The notes under the pieces were generated by a model. It was not told where the DNA came from. It did not search any database and was given only the letters and a program-made list of their open reading frames with translations. DNA of 64,000 nt from assembly GCF_004010195.1 (NCBI RefSeq), contig NC_057751.1:17833768-17897767 (forward strand), in the 5' to 3' direction. This DNA is from Chiloscyllium plagiosum. Lineage: Eukaryota. Of this stretch, positions 3,374 through 52,029 are shown in pieces (within the stretch, counting starts at the first letter, position 1; each line of letters opens with the position of its first letter). Both the position numbers and the translations under genes were made by a program.

Positions 3374-3465
3374 CCTAATGAAGTGCTCATGCCCGAAATA
3401 TTCATTGTCCTGTTCTTCGGATGCTGCCTGACCTGCTGTGCTTTTCCAGAACCATACTCTCGAGC
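3374..3465 (+). mobile_element. Penelope-like terminus fragment with decayed hammerhead core
   Basis: cctaatgaagtgctcatgcccgaaa...gatgctgcctgacctgctgtgcttttccag, homologous to the arm at 43040-43128. Confidence 0.7.
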
Positions 3466-4286: not shown

Positions 4287-5149
4287 TTATGCAAAAATAG
4301 CTTCCAGTGGGTTCCTGAGCTTCGCTCTGAACTTGGATAGAGATGCCACATAGACAATGGTGTTCGTGCAGCAATTCAAATTCCGCAGCATGTAGGCAAC
4401 TTGTTTAAATATGTATTCACCATCTCGATCTAAAGGATCATCAACATCGAAATAATATAAAATATACCAAATCCACAGAAAAATGAAGTTGCCAGATATG
4501 ACGAAGAGTAAAATTATACTCTGTCTTCTACTTTCCATCTCTGGGTCGCTGGAATCTTCTCCCTTACTCTGAACCTTCAGAGCTTTCCGGACTCGACTGG
4601 CTACTAAAATGTGTTTGACTGTCAGAGTGTTGAGGAACAGAATTAAACCAAAAGGGAATATTGGTGTTAGAATCTTTTCAAAGTTGTTAAATCCTCTCCA
4701 CACAGGGTCATAATAATATGCATCTGAATTCATACAGTACCATGGTACATTACTGATGATTTCATAAGGTTCAAATCTGAAGTAGATAGGGATATTTTTT
4801 ACAAACAACAGACTGCTGGTTGTTGCGAGAACCACGGTTGCAATTCTTTGAGTGCAGTATTTAGTTTTCAGTTTCGCACAACAAATGGTGACATATCGAT
4901 CAAAGGTGAAAGCAATTGTGAACCAGACAGAACAATCTATGAGTAGACGGCGCAGAGCATAACGAATACTACATACAGGGGTGATGTCCAGGAATGATGG
5001 TGGAAAAAAATCATGATTGATTCGACTGAGTATGATCTCAATGATAACGACCAATAGGTCCACCACTGCCATGGTGAGCAGGTAGCGTCTGCTGCAGGAA
5101 GATAGTCCACACGTATCCCGAAATAGGATCCCAACCGTCACTAAATTGA
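4287..5149 (-). CDS. Class A (rhodopsin-family) GPCR, GPR139/GPR142-like; coding exon 2
   Basis: Open frame with hydrophobic helices, MAVVDLL (TM2), FTFDRYVTIC (DRY), LTPIFPF (TM5), NCCTNTIVY (NPxxY variant) and SKFR (helix 8). Polypyrimidine tract plus TTACAG acceptor immediately before 5149, phase 1. Confidence 0.92.
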
Positions 5150-6352
5150 CTGTAAGAGAGGAAGAAGGGGGAAAATGATCAATGCAGGCCAATATGCTTC
5201 TTTACTGAGGCTAAGTGGTATGGATTCGACTTCATCAACACAAACGTGTTAAAGTAATTAGTTATCTAATCAATAATGTGAATCAACAGGACACTGAATC
5301 TCACACCTCCAGTTTTAATATATGTGTAACATAAGCATGAAACACACTGTATACAAGAGGACAGCGGCTCAGTAAGATTTTGACTGAGGAGGAAATGCAC
5401 AGGCAGATCAGAAACTATTTGATTCATTCAGGGTAATTTCAGTTCAAGCAACTCCAATTCCTGAAATTGCAACATTCTTGTTAAAACGAGATGACTACTT
5501 TAAGCCCCAGCCCCTTCGACACAAGTAACAATCCTACACTCAGCAATAGCAGACAGAGCAATTACATACCAGAAAGAACACAAAAGCAGATGCCATTTTC
5601 TCTGAGGCTGTTGAACTTTTGATGTTTTGTGTAATAAGCATTACAAAACACTGGCAAGAGAGGATGAGCATTCTGCATGACGCCGCCGGAAATGAAAAGA
5701 TGTGTTCAAATGTTCATAAGTGTCCAGGAAGATGTGGAAGACAGAGAGCTGTGTGGAGCTTTAAGATTGTTACAGACAGTTGGCTCAAATGCCAAGCTTC
5801 CGTACTGTGTATACTGTGCCTGAAAGAGTTTCCTCTCATGTCTCAAACACATCCAAAATTCTTTTCCTGTATTTCGTCGAAACAACTGAAAGATCTCGCT
5901 GTCGACACCAGCCTGCCCCAGCTAACTGTGCAGTCTAGCCTTAAGCAGCATTTCTGATGGTAAGAACCTCTTCTGTCCGGTTGTTTTTTTTGTTAAATCT
6001 ATGAGATTTTTTTTTTGAAATGTTTTTTTAAGTTTATTTTTTAAAATTGGTTTCTGCCTCTTTACGAATGAGGTATAAAATCGCAATTTCCTAGTATTCA
6101 GTCTCTGTGCAATTGATTACAGTACTTCACATGATATTCATCGGCGATTTTGATCCTCATGGAATGGTCCAGCACTGAGCGCAATAACATGGTGGGGAGA
6201 CATTGAAATAGTGGAAGCAAAGTGAAACTACGGGATGAGAGCCGGGATATTCGACCCAATGTGCTGTTGCAGGTAACATTTTTGCTTTCTGGACACTCGC
6301 GGAACTTTGTCAGGCACAGATTTGAATTGCCTCGGAGATTGTCTTTACTCAC

Positions 6353-8050: not shown

Positions 8051-8300
8051 TGTATATTAGAGGGCAAACATGTTGTTGGTTATACACAAATAGCTGGATC
8101 AAACTGCAGGCAAGTGTCATCCAGCATGACGACCCTTCAAACATCAGCAATAGTGCGATTGTTTTGAGGAGTTTGGTTATTGAAGAACGGCTGGCATTTA
8201 TCTCTGTGTGAGTGTGATTGTGGCGAGTAGGATAGTGAGCTAGTTAGGATAGGTTTACATTTAGTGATCCATGATTAGGATTGGGTAGTAAGGTTGACAA

Positions 8301-8407
8301 TGTAAGGACTGCAGATGCTGGAGCTGACGATCGAAAATAGGTGCTGAAAATGTACCGCAGGTCAGACAGCATCTGAGGAACAGGAGCATAAGCCCATCAA
8401 CAGGAAT
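8301..8407 (-). mobile_element. Penelope-like terminus fragment
   Basis: gactgcagatgctggag...gcaggtcagacagcatctgaggaacagg, homologous to 42921-43040. Confidence 0.65.
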
Positions 8408-14040: not shown

Positions 14041-14251
14041 CAAGTTGTGGACACAACTTTGCACGTCTAGGAAAAGAAGGGAAATAGAGCTATTAGGGAA
14101 CATGGGAGGGAATGCGTGAACGTGGGACTGTGTTGAACGACCAGCTGGGATCGTATTCAATGGCAGAGCAGGCTCAAAGGACTGTATAGCCTAGTGCCGT
14201 TACTATTTGCAAATCATTTCTCTGCAATCGGGTATCTCAATTGTTAGTAGA

Positions 14252-14362
14252 AAGTGAGTTCTGCACTCAGAGTTGAGAGTGTGTTGCTGGAGAGGCACAG
14301 CAGTTCAAGCAGCGTCCAAGGAGAAGGTAAATCGACATTCTGGACTTAAGCCCTTTATCTGC
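14252..14362 (-). mobile_element. Penelope-like terminus fragment
   Basis: gtgtgttgctggagaggcacagcagttcaagcagcgtcc...tcgacattctggacttaagccc. Confidence 0.6.
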
Positions 14363-16419: not shown

Positions 16420-16525
16420 CCGACAGTGTGCTGCTGGAGAAGCACTGCACGTCAAGCAACACCTGACAAGCAGGACAATCAACGTGTTGTACATACACCC
16501 TCCATCAGGAATCAATCCTGATGTG
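16420..16525. mobile_element. Penelope-like terminus with incipient fold-back
   Basis: Homologous arm ending ccatcaggaat-c-aatcctgatg (short inverted junction around CTGATG). Confidence 0.55.
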
Positions 16526-41867: not shown

Positions 41868-42180
41868 TTAGATTAGATTACTTACAGTGTGGAAACAGGC
41901 CCTTCGGCCCAACAAGTCCACACCGCCCCGCCGAAGCGCAACCCACCCATACCCCTGCATTTACCCCTTACCTAACACTACGGGCAATTTTAGCATGGCC
42001 AATTTACCTGACCTGCACATCTTTGGACTGTGGGAGGAAACCGGAGCACCCGGAGGAAACCGACGCAAACACGGGGAGCACGTGCAAACTCCACACAGTC
42101 AGTCGCCTGAGGCGGGAATTGAACCCGGGTCTCTGGCGCTGTGAGGCAGCAGTGCTAACCACTGTGCCACCGTGCCGCCC
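41868..42180 (-). mobile_element. Young full-length HE1 SINE
   Basis: Near-identical reverse complement of 12902-13224. Confidence 0.92.
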
Positions 42181-42913
42181 ATAATGATGGACAATGTTGG
42201 ATCTGGTTTCTTGCCAATGGGATGGTAAAATGTGATGGTGACAAATGAGAGACAGAGGGATTAATCAATAGGATGGCAGTGATGAGGTGGCGGTACGAAA
42301 AGTAATGATATGCATGATGACTGGCCCTGTTCAAACCATCAGACACACATGCACGAGATTAATGTCTGAAACCTGCATCCACTAGATCACCACAGACCAC
42401 TTCCTTCTGGCAGAATAGGTCATTGGACTTTTTTGCAGATGGCTTACTGAGCAATTTGAAATAAAGTAAATGCTGGCTGTTATCTCATTGTGGAAAAACA
42501 AAACTCCAAATGGCCTTTGGAAAATTGATCGGATATTCCGATGGAAGTTTAATAATTTGCGGGTTTCATTAGATTTTCGAGTCTGCAAATGCTTAGATAT
42601 CCCTCGACTTTTCTCAAAACACAAATGGTTAACATCCTGCTCATAATTCAAAAATATATATGAGACTGTAAAGATCAGGGTGAGATCACACTCGAGTATT
42701 TTCTGCAATTCACCGTACAGGAGTATGCACTTGCACTGGAGAGATTGTAAAAGAGATTTATCAGGTAGTTGCCTGGATGCTGAAATTTTCATATGAGAGA
42801 TTTCGAGGATTAGGCTTGTGGTCCTCGTAGTCGCAGAGACTGAGGAGTTGGCCACCGCGCAAAAACGAGTAGAGGCTAAAAAAAAAATCACGTCAGGTTA
42901 TACAATTTCAGTA

Positions 42914-43127
42914 AGGAGAAAGTGAGGTCTGCAGATGCTGGAGATCAAAGTTGAAACTTTATTGCTGGAACAGCACAGCAGGTCAGGCAGCATCCAGGGA
43001 ACAGGAGATTCGACGTTTCGGGCACAGGCCCTTCTTCAGGAAGAAGGGCCTGTGCCCGAAACGTCGAATCTCCTGTTCCCTGGATGCTGCCTGACCTGCT
43101 GTGCTGTTCCAGCAATAAAGTTTCAAC
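42914..43127. mobile_element. Fold-back Penelope-terminus element with 15-bp TSD
   Basis: Perfect 89-bp inverted repeat 42949-43037 / 43040-43128; TATACAATTTCAGTA at 42899-42913 and 43128-43142. Confidence 0.9.
43009..43042 (-). ncRNA. Minimal type I hammerhead ribozyme motif
   Basis: Minus strand uuc-CUGAAGA-A-GGGC-cugu-GCCC-GAAA-C-GUC-gaa: complete core, stem II, palindromic ACGU in place of stem III, short stem I. Confidence 0.75.
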
Positions 43128-43370
43128 TATACAATTTCAGTAGTCAAAACACAGACACATAATCTGTAGAATAACTTTCAAATATTTGAATTGGTGGCGG
43201 GGATGGGGGAATGGAGGTTAATGTTAATTAATGTTGCAAGAACAAAAACTATCAAACAATTGGGAAAATATTTATGAAGCGCTATTCCAAAGGGAAAGGA
43301 GAGCTGGAAAACAATTTAAGTCTTGATTTATTTGTTGCTCTAGCTACATGCTCAGATGAGGTTGAGCTAA

Positions 43371-43663
43371 AGGTGGCTCAGTGATTAGCACTGCTGCCTC
43401 ACAGGACCAGGGACCCGAGTTCGATTCCCGCTTCGGGCGACTGTCTGTGTGGAGTTTGCACATTCTCCCCGTGTCTGCGTGGGTTTGCTCTGGTTTCCTC
43501 ACACAGTCCAAAAGTCAGGTGAATTGGCTATGCTAAATTGCCCAGAGTGTTACATGCATTGGTCAGGGGTAAATACAGGGTGTGGGTGGGTTAGTCTTTG
43601 GAGGGTCGGTGTGGGCTTGTTGGGCCAAAGGGCCTGTTTACATACTGTAGGGAATCTAATCTA
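43371..43663 (+). mobile_element. HE1 SINE
   Basis: ggtggctcagtgattagcactgctgcc...gggaatctaatct. Confidence 0.88.
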
Positions 43664-44306: not shown

Positions 44307-44592
44307 GGGCGGCGCGGTAGCACAGTGGTTAGCACTGCTGCCTCACAGCGCCTGAGACCCGGGTTCAGTTCCCGTCTCAGGCGACTGACTGTGTCGAGTT
44401 TGCACGTTCTCCCCGTGTCTGCGTGGGTTTCCTCCGGGTGCTCCGGTTTCCTCCCACTGTCCGAAAGATGTGCAGGTCAGGTGAATTGGCCATGGGAAAT
44501 TGCCCGTAGTATTAGGTAAGGGGCAAATGTAGTGGTATGGGTGGGTCGGTGTGGACTTGTTGGGCTGAAGGGCCTGTTTCCATACTGTAATC
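44307..44592 (+). mobile_element. HE1 SINE (tandem copy 1)
   Basis: Full head, 3' deletion, short tail. Confidence 0.9.
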
Positions 44593-44997: not shown

Positions 44998-45310
44998 CAG
45001 AACACTAAGCCCATCTGCTGATCAACAATGATGTCTACAGGTCAGAAAGTTAATATCAATATGTTCCTTAACGAGATTTTCTTTTCGATTTCACTGCCTT
45101 TCTCTCTCTCACTCGTCTCTCTGCATTTAAGCTAAACCACCTCCAATTAATTGCAATTGTTCCTGAGTCGCATTGAAATCAACAACACAAGTGTCAATTT
45201 CTTTAATGTCTGTCTTGAGCTTGATAGTAGCTGTACTGTCATGTGGAACTATTTACCAAATCCGTGTTCAGAAGATCTCAGTCGATAGAACGAAATATTA
45301 TTAGGAGCAC

Positions 45311-45496
45311 GTGAGGACTATAGACGCTGGAGTTCACAGTCAAAATGTGTGGTGCTGGAATAGCACAGCCAGCCAAGGAGCATCGGTGGAACTGGAGAAT
45401 CGATATTTCTGGCCTAAGTCCTTCATTGGTAATGAATCTCTCGCTCCTCGGATGCTGCCTGACCGGCTGTACGTTTCCAGCAAAACATTTTCGACT
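45311..45496. mobile_element. Older fold-back Penelope-terminus element
   Basis: Imperfect inverted arms at about 45338-45400 / 45435-45496, homologous to 42914-43127. Confidence 0.75.
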
Positions 45497-48954: not shown

Positions 48955-49912
48955 GTTCATGAAGTAACTCGACAGAGTCCAATACGCCATCACCAAGTCA
49001 CCCTTTATTTATACGCACACTGTATGTGGAAAATGAGCAGCGAACTCAGAGTCAGTCGCTAGATGGAGAATAATCCCTCAGACTTTGGTGAGTACCAGTC
49101 GTCCAGGAATCCCTGACTGGCCCAGGTTACCTTTCCCTGAAAATGGACGTTATATGCAATGACATCCTCTGACTCAACTCTTTGCAGTCATTCCGTTCCA
49201 CAGCTCCCACACACACCAATTCCAATTATGTAGGCCTTTTCATGTTCCTCTCGATTTTGTCGAAGATCTTATTCCTTCCAAATGACTCGGCATGGGCAGC
49301 ATTTATCGGACATCAACCAGTTTCTTTTACGTGGATCTTCTCAGTAGATGTTCCTCCTCATTCACAGGTAGTAACAGTATCGACGGTGTGATACTGCATC
49401 CGTCTCGAACGCTGAGGTTTCTTCGATGCAAGATACAGCATGGGAAAACACGGTTTTTAAAAAGATTTACAGACGTTCTGAGGGGCCGGGTGGGATTTGT
49501 TCCTGCCCGGTTTTGTGAAATAGCTGCTTTGTAGCGTGAGAGACGTTGTACAATCAAACAGAAACTCGGACTGTTTGGTATCGAGTGAGGTTGTACGCTG
49601 TTTCTTTAAGCATACGTTCAACTTTTGAACTACATTCTAACAGACCATCGGACAAGGAATAATATCAACCTATCCAGACATACCAAATGGCAATAGTCTT
49701 AAGGAAGTAAATAACGGCTTATTGTCCAAGAACAATACTTCCTGGAGTCCATGCATTGCAAATGATGCTCACACATTTTCTATATGTTCACTGAGTTTGA
49801 CGAATGTACATCGTACACGTTCATCCACATTGAAGGGACATCAACAATGACCACAAATATTGAGCACATCGAAGAACCAGCTTAGTTGATGTGCAACGCA
49901 GTCTTGGGGTAA
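48955..49912 (-). mobile_element. Gypsy integrase relic and probable 3' LTR (about 48955-49165)
   Basis: Minus strand LHIN*AG..FVVIVDVPSMWMNV...SFAMHGLQEVLFLDN resembles the rve core HIDFAGP..LVIVDAHSKW..FA.HGLPEVLVTDNG; AATAAA lies in the putative LTR. Confidence 0.7.
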
Positions 49913-50412
49913 ANNNNNNNNNNNNNNNNNNNNNNNNNNNNNNNNNNNNNNNNNNNNNNNNNNNNNNNNNNNNNNNNNNNNNNNNNNNNNNNNNNNNNNN
50001 NNNNNNNNNNNNNNNNNNNNNNNNNNNNNNNNNNNNNNNNNNNNNNNNNNNNNNNNNNNNNNNNNNNNNNNNNNNNNNNNNNNNNNNNNNNNNNNNNNNN
50101 NNNNNNNNNNNNNNNNNNNNNNNNNNNNNNNNNNNNNNNNNNNNNNNNNNNNNNNNNNNNNNNNNNNNNNNNNNNNNNNNNNNNNNNNNNNNNNNNNNNN
50201 NNNNNNNNNNNNNNNNNNNNNNNNNNNNNNNNNNNNNNNNNNNNNNNNNNNNNNNNNNNNNNNNNNNNNNNNNNNNNNNNNNNNNNNNNNNNNNNNNNNN
50301 NNNNNNNNNNNNNNNNNNNNNNNNNNNNNNNNNNNNNNNNNNNNNNNNNNNNNNNNNNNNNNNNNNNNNNNNNNNNNNNNNNNNNNNNNNNNNNNNNNNN
50401 NNNNNNNNNNNN
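49913..50412. other. Assembly gap (500 N)
   Basis: Run of n. Confidence 1.
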
Positions 50413-50910
50413 NTGGAGGAGGTGCAGTGGAGAGCATCGTCAACCACGTCTGAGGGGAAATTGCGGTGTTTGAAGAAGGAGGTCATCTGGGTTGTTCGGT
50501 ATTGGATTTGGTCTTCCTGAGAGCAGATGCAGCAGAGGCGAAGGAATTGGAAATATGGGATGGCGTTTTTACAGGGGCAAGGGTGGGAGGAAGTGTCATC
50601 TAGGTAGCTGTGGGAGTCGGTCTATTTATTGTGAATGTCCGTGCTGAGTCGGTCGCCCGAGATTGAAATGGAGAGGTCGAGGAAGGAGAGGGAGGCGTCT
50701 GAGATAGTCCAGGTAAATTTGAGGTCGGTGTGGAAGGTGTTAGTAAAGTGGATGAACTGTTCAACCTCCTCGTGGGAGCACGAGGTAGCGCCGATACAGT
50801 CATCGATGTAACGGAGGAAAAGGTGGGGTTTGGTGCTAGTGTTGCTTCGGAAGATGGACTGTTCCACATATCCGACGAAGAGGCAGGCATTGCTGGGGCC
50901 CATGCGGGTA
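50413..50910 (-). mobile_element. Penelope-like element RT core (young), 5'-truncated, running into the gap
   Basis: RMGPSNACLFVGYVE..FLRYIDDCIG..LKFTWTISDASLSFLDL. Confidence 0.92.
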
Positions 50911-52029
50911 CTCCTTTGGTTTGGCACCACCCCCCATGTTTTCATCATTATTATGTAAAATTTGTAAAGGAATTTAAAGTGGGTGAGATGTGCGATGTGG
51001 CCGCACTCTTGAATGAAGGAGGTGTGAGTATACAGAGATTTATTGGATTTTTTTTTCTCTGAAAGCTTAATGTTCGTCGAAGCAATGAGAAAGACACTGG
51101 TGCTAGTGTTGCAATAATTAAACATTTCTGTTACCCTGATAACAATTTCATATGTTTAACATTATCCACTATTTTATTTTTTTCGAGAATTGTGACCAGA
51201 CCATTCACATGGATATTTTTGTTATAACTATTAGATTTTAAAGTTATGTGCCTTACAGGTCGACATTAAATAATTTCCAACCCATTTTCACGACTGTGAT
51301 GAAGGATTTTGGAGGTATTCAGTGATGGAAGAAAAGAACTGAAATTAACTCATGTTTCGAGTTGGAATAATCTGTGCAAATGGAATGTGCAGCACTAATC
51401 ACGTGATATTAAAGTCTTTGAAAAATAATCAGTTGTGGATATCGATTTATTTAACGATTAAAAATGAAATGACTGTCCATTTTGATATTTTTTTCTCTTG
51501 CAGAGAGGCGCTCCAGCAATAGTGCAGATATAAATCCATCTGCCATGTAGTTAGTAAACAAATTTTGAGTTCGCCTTGCTGTTTTCTTTTCACATTACAC
51601 ACTTGAACCATGAATTGGTGGGGTCAAAGTTCACACAGACCCAGGAAGATTTTTAGAATGGATTTCAGTGAGTCAGTCGGCTTCTGCTGACTGTGAATCT
51701 AAACGCTTGAGATCTTGGCTGCTGAAAACAGTGAAAGTGAAGTCTCAGACAGAGAGGCTTCTTTAGAATCAAAAAAGGCATAATGTTTCTTTCTTCTGAA
51801 CTGGAGAGAGGTACGTTGTGAGAACCATAAAAATTTTGTTGCATTGCATTTTTGCCAATATAATTGTTGTGGAATGCAACATGTTTTGGAACAGTTGTGT
51901 GTAGGAATACAGTTTGCCTTTATGAAATCTTCCGTGGATCAATTGAATCACAATGTAAATTTAGGGTATAGGCTATCTGCTCGCAATAATTTTTTTGGGG
52001 GGGCTATGGCGGTAGTCTGGTCTTGTTTA

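Follow-up and report, generated by a model that had tools for sequence, protein, structure and literature searches.

The window analysed here, a stretch of 64,000 nucleotides from contig NC_057751.1 of Chiloscyllium plagiosum, carries a recent, polymorphic insertion without an ORF, which consists of the hammerhead-bearing terminus of a young Penelope-like retroelement (PLE). Two fold-back arms of 89 nt each (42949-43037 and 43040-43128) are exact reverse complements around the spacer AG, and the left arm bears an unpaired extension of 35 nt (42914-42948). The insert of 214 nt (42914-43127) lies between two copies, at 42899-42913 and 43128-43142, of the 15-nt TSD TATACAATTTCAGTA. The arms, spacer and TSD, together with a hammerhead core on the minus strand and a plus arm that lacks the CU of that core, had all been described in the original prediction and are exact in the sequence. 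The features are as follows, the C of CUGA being counted as +1 of the element:

42899-42913, plus strand: left TSD, 15 nt, found once in the empty allele; priming of the long (tailed) cDNA would have begun at its 3' end
42914-42948, minus strand: Penelope 'tail' (as the term is used in PMC11167929 and PMC3846280), element about +92 to +126, on the long arm only
42914-43042, minus strand: long arm, which covers -3 to +126 of the pLTR end in minus-strand sense, with zero mismatches to native family copies
43008-43042, minus strand: minimal type I hammerhead, read from the sequence, with predicted cleavage
43042-43040, minus strand: 5' strand of helix I, UUC, read from the sequence
43039-43033, minus strand: CUGAAGA core, read from the sequence
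43031-43020, minus strand: helix II, GGGC/GCCC, read from the sequence
between 43012 and 43011, minus strand: predicted cut after GAAAC-GUC
43011-43008, minus strand: 3' strand of helix I, GAAU, read from the sequence
43040-43042, plus strand: junction with a 3-nt GAA microhomology, where positions -1 to -3, with which the long cDNA terminates, equal +3 to +5 of the short arm, by comparison with the native context CTCATTCCTGAAG
43040-43128, plus strand: short arm, which covers +3 to +90/91 of the pLTR end and has neither a tail nor the CU of the core
43128-43142, plus strand: right TSD, 15 nt, its first T common to the arm; priming of the short cDNA would have begun at its 3' end on the minus strand

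The RNA fold of the window hairpin gave z = -27 against 200 shuffles, so the complementarity of the arms is not due to chance. The empty site was found in one of the four read runs examined (run X6, depth 3.5), where 42898 is followed directly by 43128 in one contig, which has the TSD once, along with a few other letters. This sample is not the one flagged as a possible source of the assembly, and the presence of the empty allele in another sample indicates that the insertion is real, recent and polymorphic. The search for such an allele had been suggested as a check on the original prediction, whose description of a very recent, ORF-less insertion dependent on the protein of its parent is supported. 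A short-read assembly error at a repeat might be suspected from the N runs within long PLE copies of the assembly, and the filled allele was spanned by no contig in the four read runs examined. Against such an artefact, which we regard as practically negligible, stand the 15-nt TSD, the empty allele with its single TSD copy in a different sample and 31 copies with the same junction, each with its own TSD.

Exact matches in the genome numbered 11,585 for the ribozyme 42-mer (+1 to +42) and 18,408 for the 3' 32-mer (+59 to +90), with none for the reversed control in either case. Native copies show, upstream of the arm, the terminal part of an ORF and a UTR rich in pyrimidines. A query with a GIY-YIG piece gave 150 scored matches, many of them directly upstream of 98-100% identical arms (e.g. 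L171, L172, L176, L181, L185 and L189). At L188, upstream of a 92%-identical arm, a frame of 649 aa contains an RT (YIDD), a CxxxxCxxC linker and, at its C terminus, a GIY-YIG; in Pfam it matched RVT_1 (E = 2.5e-6) and GIY-YIG (E = 3.2e-4), both slightly below the curated cut-offs. Neither an intact full-length parent nor a complete intact ORF was recovered among the copies examined, the long ones holding N runs. From these similarities, the arm is assigned to the pLTR end of a young EN+ PLE encoding an RT with a C-terminal GIY-YIG, in agreement with the Penelope-like origin and minimal hammerhead foreseen in the original prediction. The RT-EN linker was read as CNRRRCNTC. A Zn-finger-like motif in this linker has been named for Neptune and Nematis (PMC8557442), and the parent element is probably of the Neptune type. 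The locus has the attributes of EN+ PLE insertions: an RT and GIY-YIG parent, a pLTR hammerhead, a tail on one arm, an inverted 5'-truncated copy at the 5' end and a TSD-flanked unit.

The minus-strand core reads CUGAAGA-A-GGGC/GCCC-GAAAC-GUC, whereas the plus arm begins at GAAGA. In native copies, where the ribozyme stands in the context CTC-ATTC-CTGAAG, the core nucleotides and helices I and II are formable, and a 38-mer starting at -4 folds with a helix I of 4 bp (AUUC/GAAU) and a helix II of 4 bp. The window copy has lost the A of the native AUUC, which shortens helix I to 3 bp (UUC/GAA); a CUUC/GAAG pairing competes, the fold differs from that of the native 38-mer, and the full transcript folds into an 89-bp duplex. 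The ribozyme of the window copy is predicted to be inactive because of this short helix I, the competing pairing and its burial in the duplex. The core of the hammerhead had been called complete at the outset; that core (CUGAAGA, GGGC/GCCC, GAAA and GUC) holds, but helix I is reduced to 3 bp and an Rfam scan of the window returned nothing at the gathering score.

Minimal hammerheads in the pLTRs of metazoan PLEs were described mostly as solo motifs, and also as opposite-strand pairs 100-700 bp apart, with low activity (Cervera and de la Pena, 2014; PMC4209133). The family studied here has the same type I core, with a 4-bp helix I, an unpaired base before helix II, the pair G10.1-C11.1 and a palindromic ACGU replacing helix III (PMC4209133). 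It differs from these in a helix II of 4 bp plus loop and, in the window copy, in the 3-bp helix I and in facing its own complement. Moreover, the opposite-strand copies found here cannot form the tandem dimer. When two native 38-mers were cofolded as a dimer, the helices came out swapped and the ACGU pairing was absent.

The exact junction of the window has 266 matches genome-wide, and the 31 same-junction copies examined carry TSDs of 13-17 nt at unrelated sites. These counts answer part of what the original prediction had asked of further copies, namely a shared inversion point with TSDs, but fold-backs with a junction within about 9 nt of the ribozyme 5' edge amount to about 2,254 and are of many types, the junction of the window accounting for about 12% of them. 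Among 50 listed fold-backs we counted, by eye, about 21 junction types, that of the window occurring seven times. The inversion point, noted earlier at the 5' edge of the ribozyme in the window copy, is far commoner there than expected by chance.

The arrangement of the tail follows a strict rule. In all 31 same-junction copies (the window and the first 30 loci listed), the longer arm reaches +125/126 and the shorter one stops at +84 to +96, so that a tail of 35-36 nt stands on exactly one arm. It stands on the CUGA arm in 15 copies and on the inverted arm in 16, a polarity which points to assembly anew at each insertion, since a master copy would fix it. An independent non-autonomous hairpin family of fixed structure is contradicted by this polarity and by the approximately 21 junction types in 50 fold-backs. 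The rule extends to head-to-head pairs of all junction types (n = 130, from loci drawn mostly from the first two contigs, the tail never being required by any search pattern): 115 were long plus short, one long plus long (L221), two short plus short and 12 unclassifiable, the latter mostly from a sister subfamily or other repeats. The mixed share is 115 of the 118 classifiable pairs (p = 1.6e-30 against 50%). In six pairs the inner arm was not a true terminus, and without these there remain 110 mixed pairs, one long plus long and one short plus short (110/112 mixed); in the remaining short plus short pair the tail is present behind an indel. Single-arm copies comprise 27 long and 18 short ones (n = 45), proportions at which independent choice would yield about half mixed pairs.

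Three further loci (L089, L106 and L129) have a long-start arm that barely exceeds the tail, from +126 back to +90, +105 and +95, as if halted at the second start site. In six loci of contig C1 (L008, L018, L159, L161, L291 and L292) the arm ends near +100 and runs on into captured sequence that does not belong to the element (59 to at least 740 nt) and is 100% identical among them, and three of these (L008, L018 and L161) have in common a longer fold-back junction (-149/-76) together with the captured sequence. The six loci look like products of an active source element with captured DNA, and possibly of a re-mobilised palindromic composite.

The 5' ends of the arms were recorded in 72 insertions chosen solely by the 3' 32-mer and classified by script (27 two-armed and 45 single-armed). 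Among their 99 arms, 46 end between -7 and -1, 23 between +1 and +10 and six between +25 and +31. Genome-wide, apparent starts number 1,553 at -4, against 122 at the cut site (+29) and 26 at a control position (+38), and only 4,221 copies continue in native sequence to -17, against 11,585 reaching +1. Position -4 is the A of TCATTC and the first base of helix I, and we take TCATTC at this point to resemble the initiator consensus. Of 31 single-arm copies, 19 have a G immediately before it, at -5, where 27% would be expected; this count covers 70 of 100 listed rows with classes assigned by eye and omits 29 GA-class rows and one GG row; all ten rows inspected of the omitted GA class were fold-backs, and the -5 G often doubles as target sequence. 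Judged from DNA, -4 is likely the capped 5' end of the element RNA. An intron ending at -5 was rejected, AG being absent there. Ribozyme cleavage was likewise rejected as the source of the junctions, which cluster 30 nt upstream of the cut. Starts at +29 are about fivefold above the single control position; when 30 of them were examined by eye, most were fold-back joins via GAAT microhomology or mutated copies and about six were simple insertions, and some cleaved RNA templates may lie behind them.

We consider it likely that the insertion was built during integration, both cut target strands having primed reverse transcription and the two short cDNAs having been joined head to head. On each strand the 3' end of the TSD runs directly into antisense element sequence, from +126 on one strand and from +90 on the other, a geometry that fits two target-primed cDNAs, and the filler DNA found between the arms at five loci (L107, L111, L114, L122 and L127) fits the end-joining of two separate cDNAs. 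The parent RT-GIY-YIG protein would cut the target with a stagger of about 14-15 nt. Priming would then take place at the distal site (+126) from one target 3' end and at the proximal site (+90) from the other, leaving exactly one tailed arm. Both cDNAs would extend as far as about -4, the 5' end of the RNA and probably a capped start within the initiator-like TCATTC; their 3' ends would be trimmed and joined via microhomology, GAA in the present case, and repair would leave the palindrome between the TSDs. The loss of one cDNA would produce a simple stub. The use of one start site of each kind suggests that a single RNA, or an asymmetric complex, is engaged at both sites. The hairpin product itself most likely leads no further, its ribozyme being crippled.

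Biochemical data on an anole PLE, Poseidon PAc, bear directly on this scheme (Frangieh et al., 2024; PMC11167929). In vitro, its protein, a predicted dimer, cuts and extends both target strands, reverse transcription begins without strand preference at two sites that bound the tail, and ribozyme cleavage is dispensable. The family described here, which has a Neptune-type linker, would likewise have two start sites bounding the tail about 110-130 nt downstream of the ribozyme; the main text on the anole element leaves inverted genomic insertions undiscussed (PMC11167929). We lean, by a modest margin, towards a more specific reading in which the stubs record PLE integration by a protein dimer on one capped RNA, the two strands priming at fixed sites 36 nt apart, one of each, and the cDNAs running off the first transcript base at helix I. 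If this is true, a single mechanism would account for one-sided tails and head-to-head palindromes throughout the EN+ PLEs, replacing antisense self-priming. The literature searched, which lay largely outside subscription journals, contained no prior dual-priming account of PLE inversions.

The main rival to dual priming is the asymmetric resolution of a hairpin intermediate, in which antisense RNA or a folded cDNA would first prime itself and an endonuclease would then open the hairpin so as to leave a one-sided tail. In Adineta, inverted pLTRs that face each other head to head, one of them tailed, lie inside a TSD, and self-priming was proposed for these palindromes (PMC3846280), the tail being attributed elsewhere to EN-mediated resolution (PMC8557442). 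The native TTC-CT-GAA also forms a tiny inverted repeat precisely at the window junction, and asymmetric processing of a hairpin could likewise yield a single tail. A self-folded cDNA cannot, however, add a tail that is missing from the template arm, yet 16 of the 31 same-junction copies have exactly this configuration. The foreign filler and the variety of junction types fit the end-joining of two molecules, and reverse transcription starts in vitro at both tail boundaries on nicked DNA (PMC11167929), so that we find snap-back synthesis improbable. The idea put forward in the original prediction, that a discrete 214-bp hairpin with a fixed inversion point is copied in trans as a unit and represents an under-described system, is not supported by the comparison of copies. 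The recurrence of the junction in 266 copies, with TSDs at unrelated sites, would suit it, and three loci with a different, longer junction and captured sequence suggest that palindromic composites may move. A master would, however, have fixed the tail polarity, and priming at its short site would have given short/short copies, of which there are none among the 31; the share of the window junction among near-edge fold-backs is explained by its 3-nt microhomology. We regard copying as a unit as very improbable.

Dual priming could also be true with -4 being a stop of the RT at helix I, or an RNA processing site, and not a capped start, a variant that we consider unlikely but less so than self-priming. 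It draws on the coincidence of -4 with the exact first base of helix I and on D. virilis Penelope, whose mapped start is situated upstream of an intron that ends against helix I (PMC2377424, PMC4209133), a geometry that places the start away from helix I in that species and counts against reading -4 as a start. The RT would, however, have displaced the 3' strand of helix I before reaching this point, and the sequence upstream is an unstructured tract of pyrimidines, AG being absent at -5. The excess of G at -5 also favours a capped start over both variants, as does the fit of TCATTC to an initiator consensus.

Among known elements, LINE-1 offers a parallel in twin priming, where cDNA synthesis is primed from both target strands, the site at which the second primer anneals varies, the two cDNAs span different parts of the RNA and the inversion is joined by microhomology between TSDs. 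By analogy, the window stub would work like twin priming but it differs in structure, as its arms overlap over +3 to +90 and issue from two fixed starts, whereas those of LINE-1 represent non-overlapping parts. A closer counterpart is the Pen2a-type EN+ PLE unit of Adineta (PMC3846280; PMC8557442, Fig. 2), with related forms in D. virilis (PMC2377424), which has the head-to-head inverted pLTR, the TSD and the pLTR hammerhead. It likewise has an optional tail of 30-40 nt on one inverted pLTR and a parent with RT and C-terminal GIY-YIG, and the inverted pLTR architecture is called typical of PLEs (PMC8557442, PMC2377424). The window stub differs from such units in consisting of only two pLTR ends without an ORF and in occurring in thousands of copies, and the TSDs of its family measure 13-17 nt against 8-10 in Adineta.

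Non-LTR retrozymes (bioRxiv 10.64898/2026.07.22.740005) are likewise non-coding, derived from PLE pLTRs and endowed with a type I hammerhead, but by definition form tandem repeats in which two or more ribozymes are complete. The window element was rejected as a member of this class, being an inverted pair whose plus-arm core lacks the CU. Elsewhere in the genome, the unrelated loci L093 (5053-5513) and L094 (4800-5430) contain the same 224-nt tandem unit, with a complete hammerhead, the tail and a 5' ORF start joined back to -17, and L027 and L174 have a 320-nt unit in common. Both units are candidate non-LTR retrozymes or circular templates.

The locus is thus an ordinary by-product of a known class and is probably inert. 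Its interest lies in the family, since PMC8557442 calls it undefined how the inverted repeats of PLEs and their one-sided tails arise, and the family statistics (one tail in 31/31 copies at a polarity of 15:16, 110/112 mixed pairs, and ends at -4 and not at the cut) bear on how PLEs integrate. The rule of one long and one short arm with random polarity, and the pile-up at -4, are quantified here and did not turn up in the passages compared from the PLE accounts. They yield a sharp prediction for the existing in vitro PLE system. In addition, the family seeds a vertebrate genome with thousands of perfect 90-bp palindromes, at least one of them polymorphic, which are a potential source of dsRNA.

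The left TSD lies about 20 nt from a splice-acceptor-like T-run and AG with a CTGAC branch-like motif on the minus strand (42876-42890), followed by an open frame of 164 aa. The frame of 164-171 aa had no Pfam, homolog or PDB match, and the region 42700-42850 resembles an old dispersed repeat; the acceptor is putative, and a host exon next to the left TSD was not retained. Within 2 kb the insertion is flanked by SINE-like copies (42022-42180, 43372-43493 and 44307-44465), the first inverted relative to the other two. Another fold-back, older and decayed, belongs to a related Penelope family (66-79% to the window family) and lies at 45303-45496, with a left-arm tail and a different junction, and further old stubs occur at 3374-3449, 8287-8386, 14243-14355 and 16432-16511. 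Broken Penelope-like RT fragments (YIDD) surround an N run at 49821-51155 on the minus strand. Also on the minus strand, at 4287-5201, a frame of 304 aa with a DRY motif and seven hydrophobic stretches is presumably a rhodopsin-type GPCR exon.
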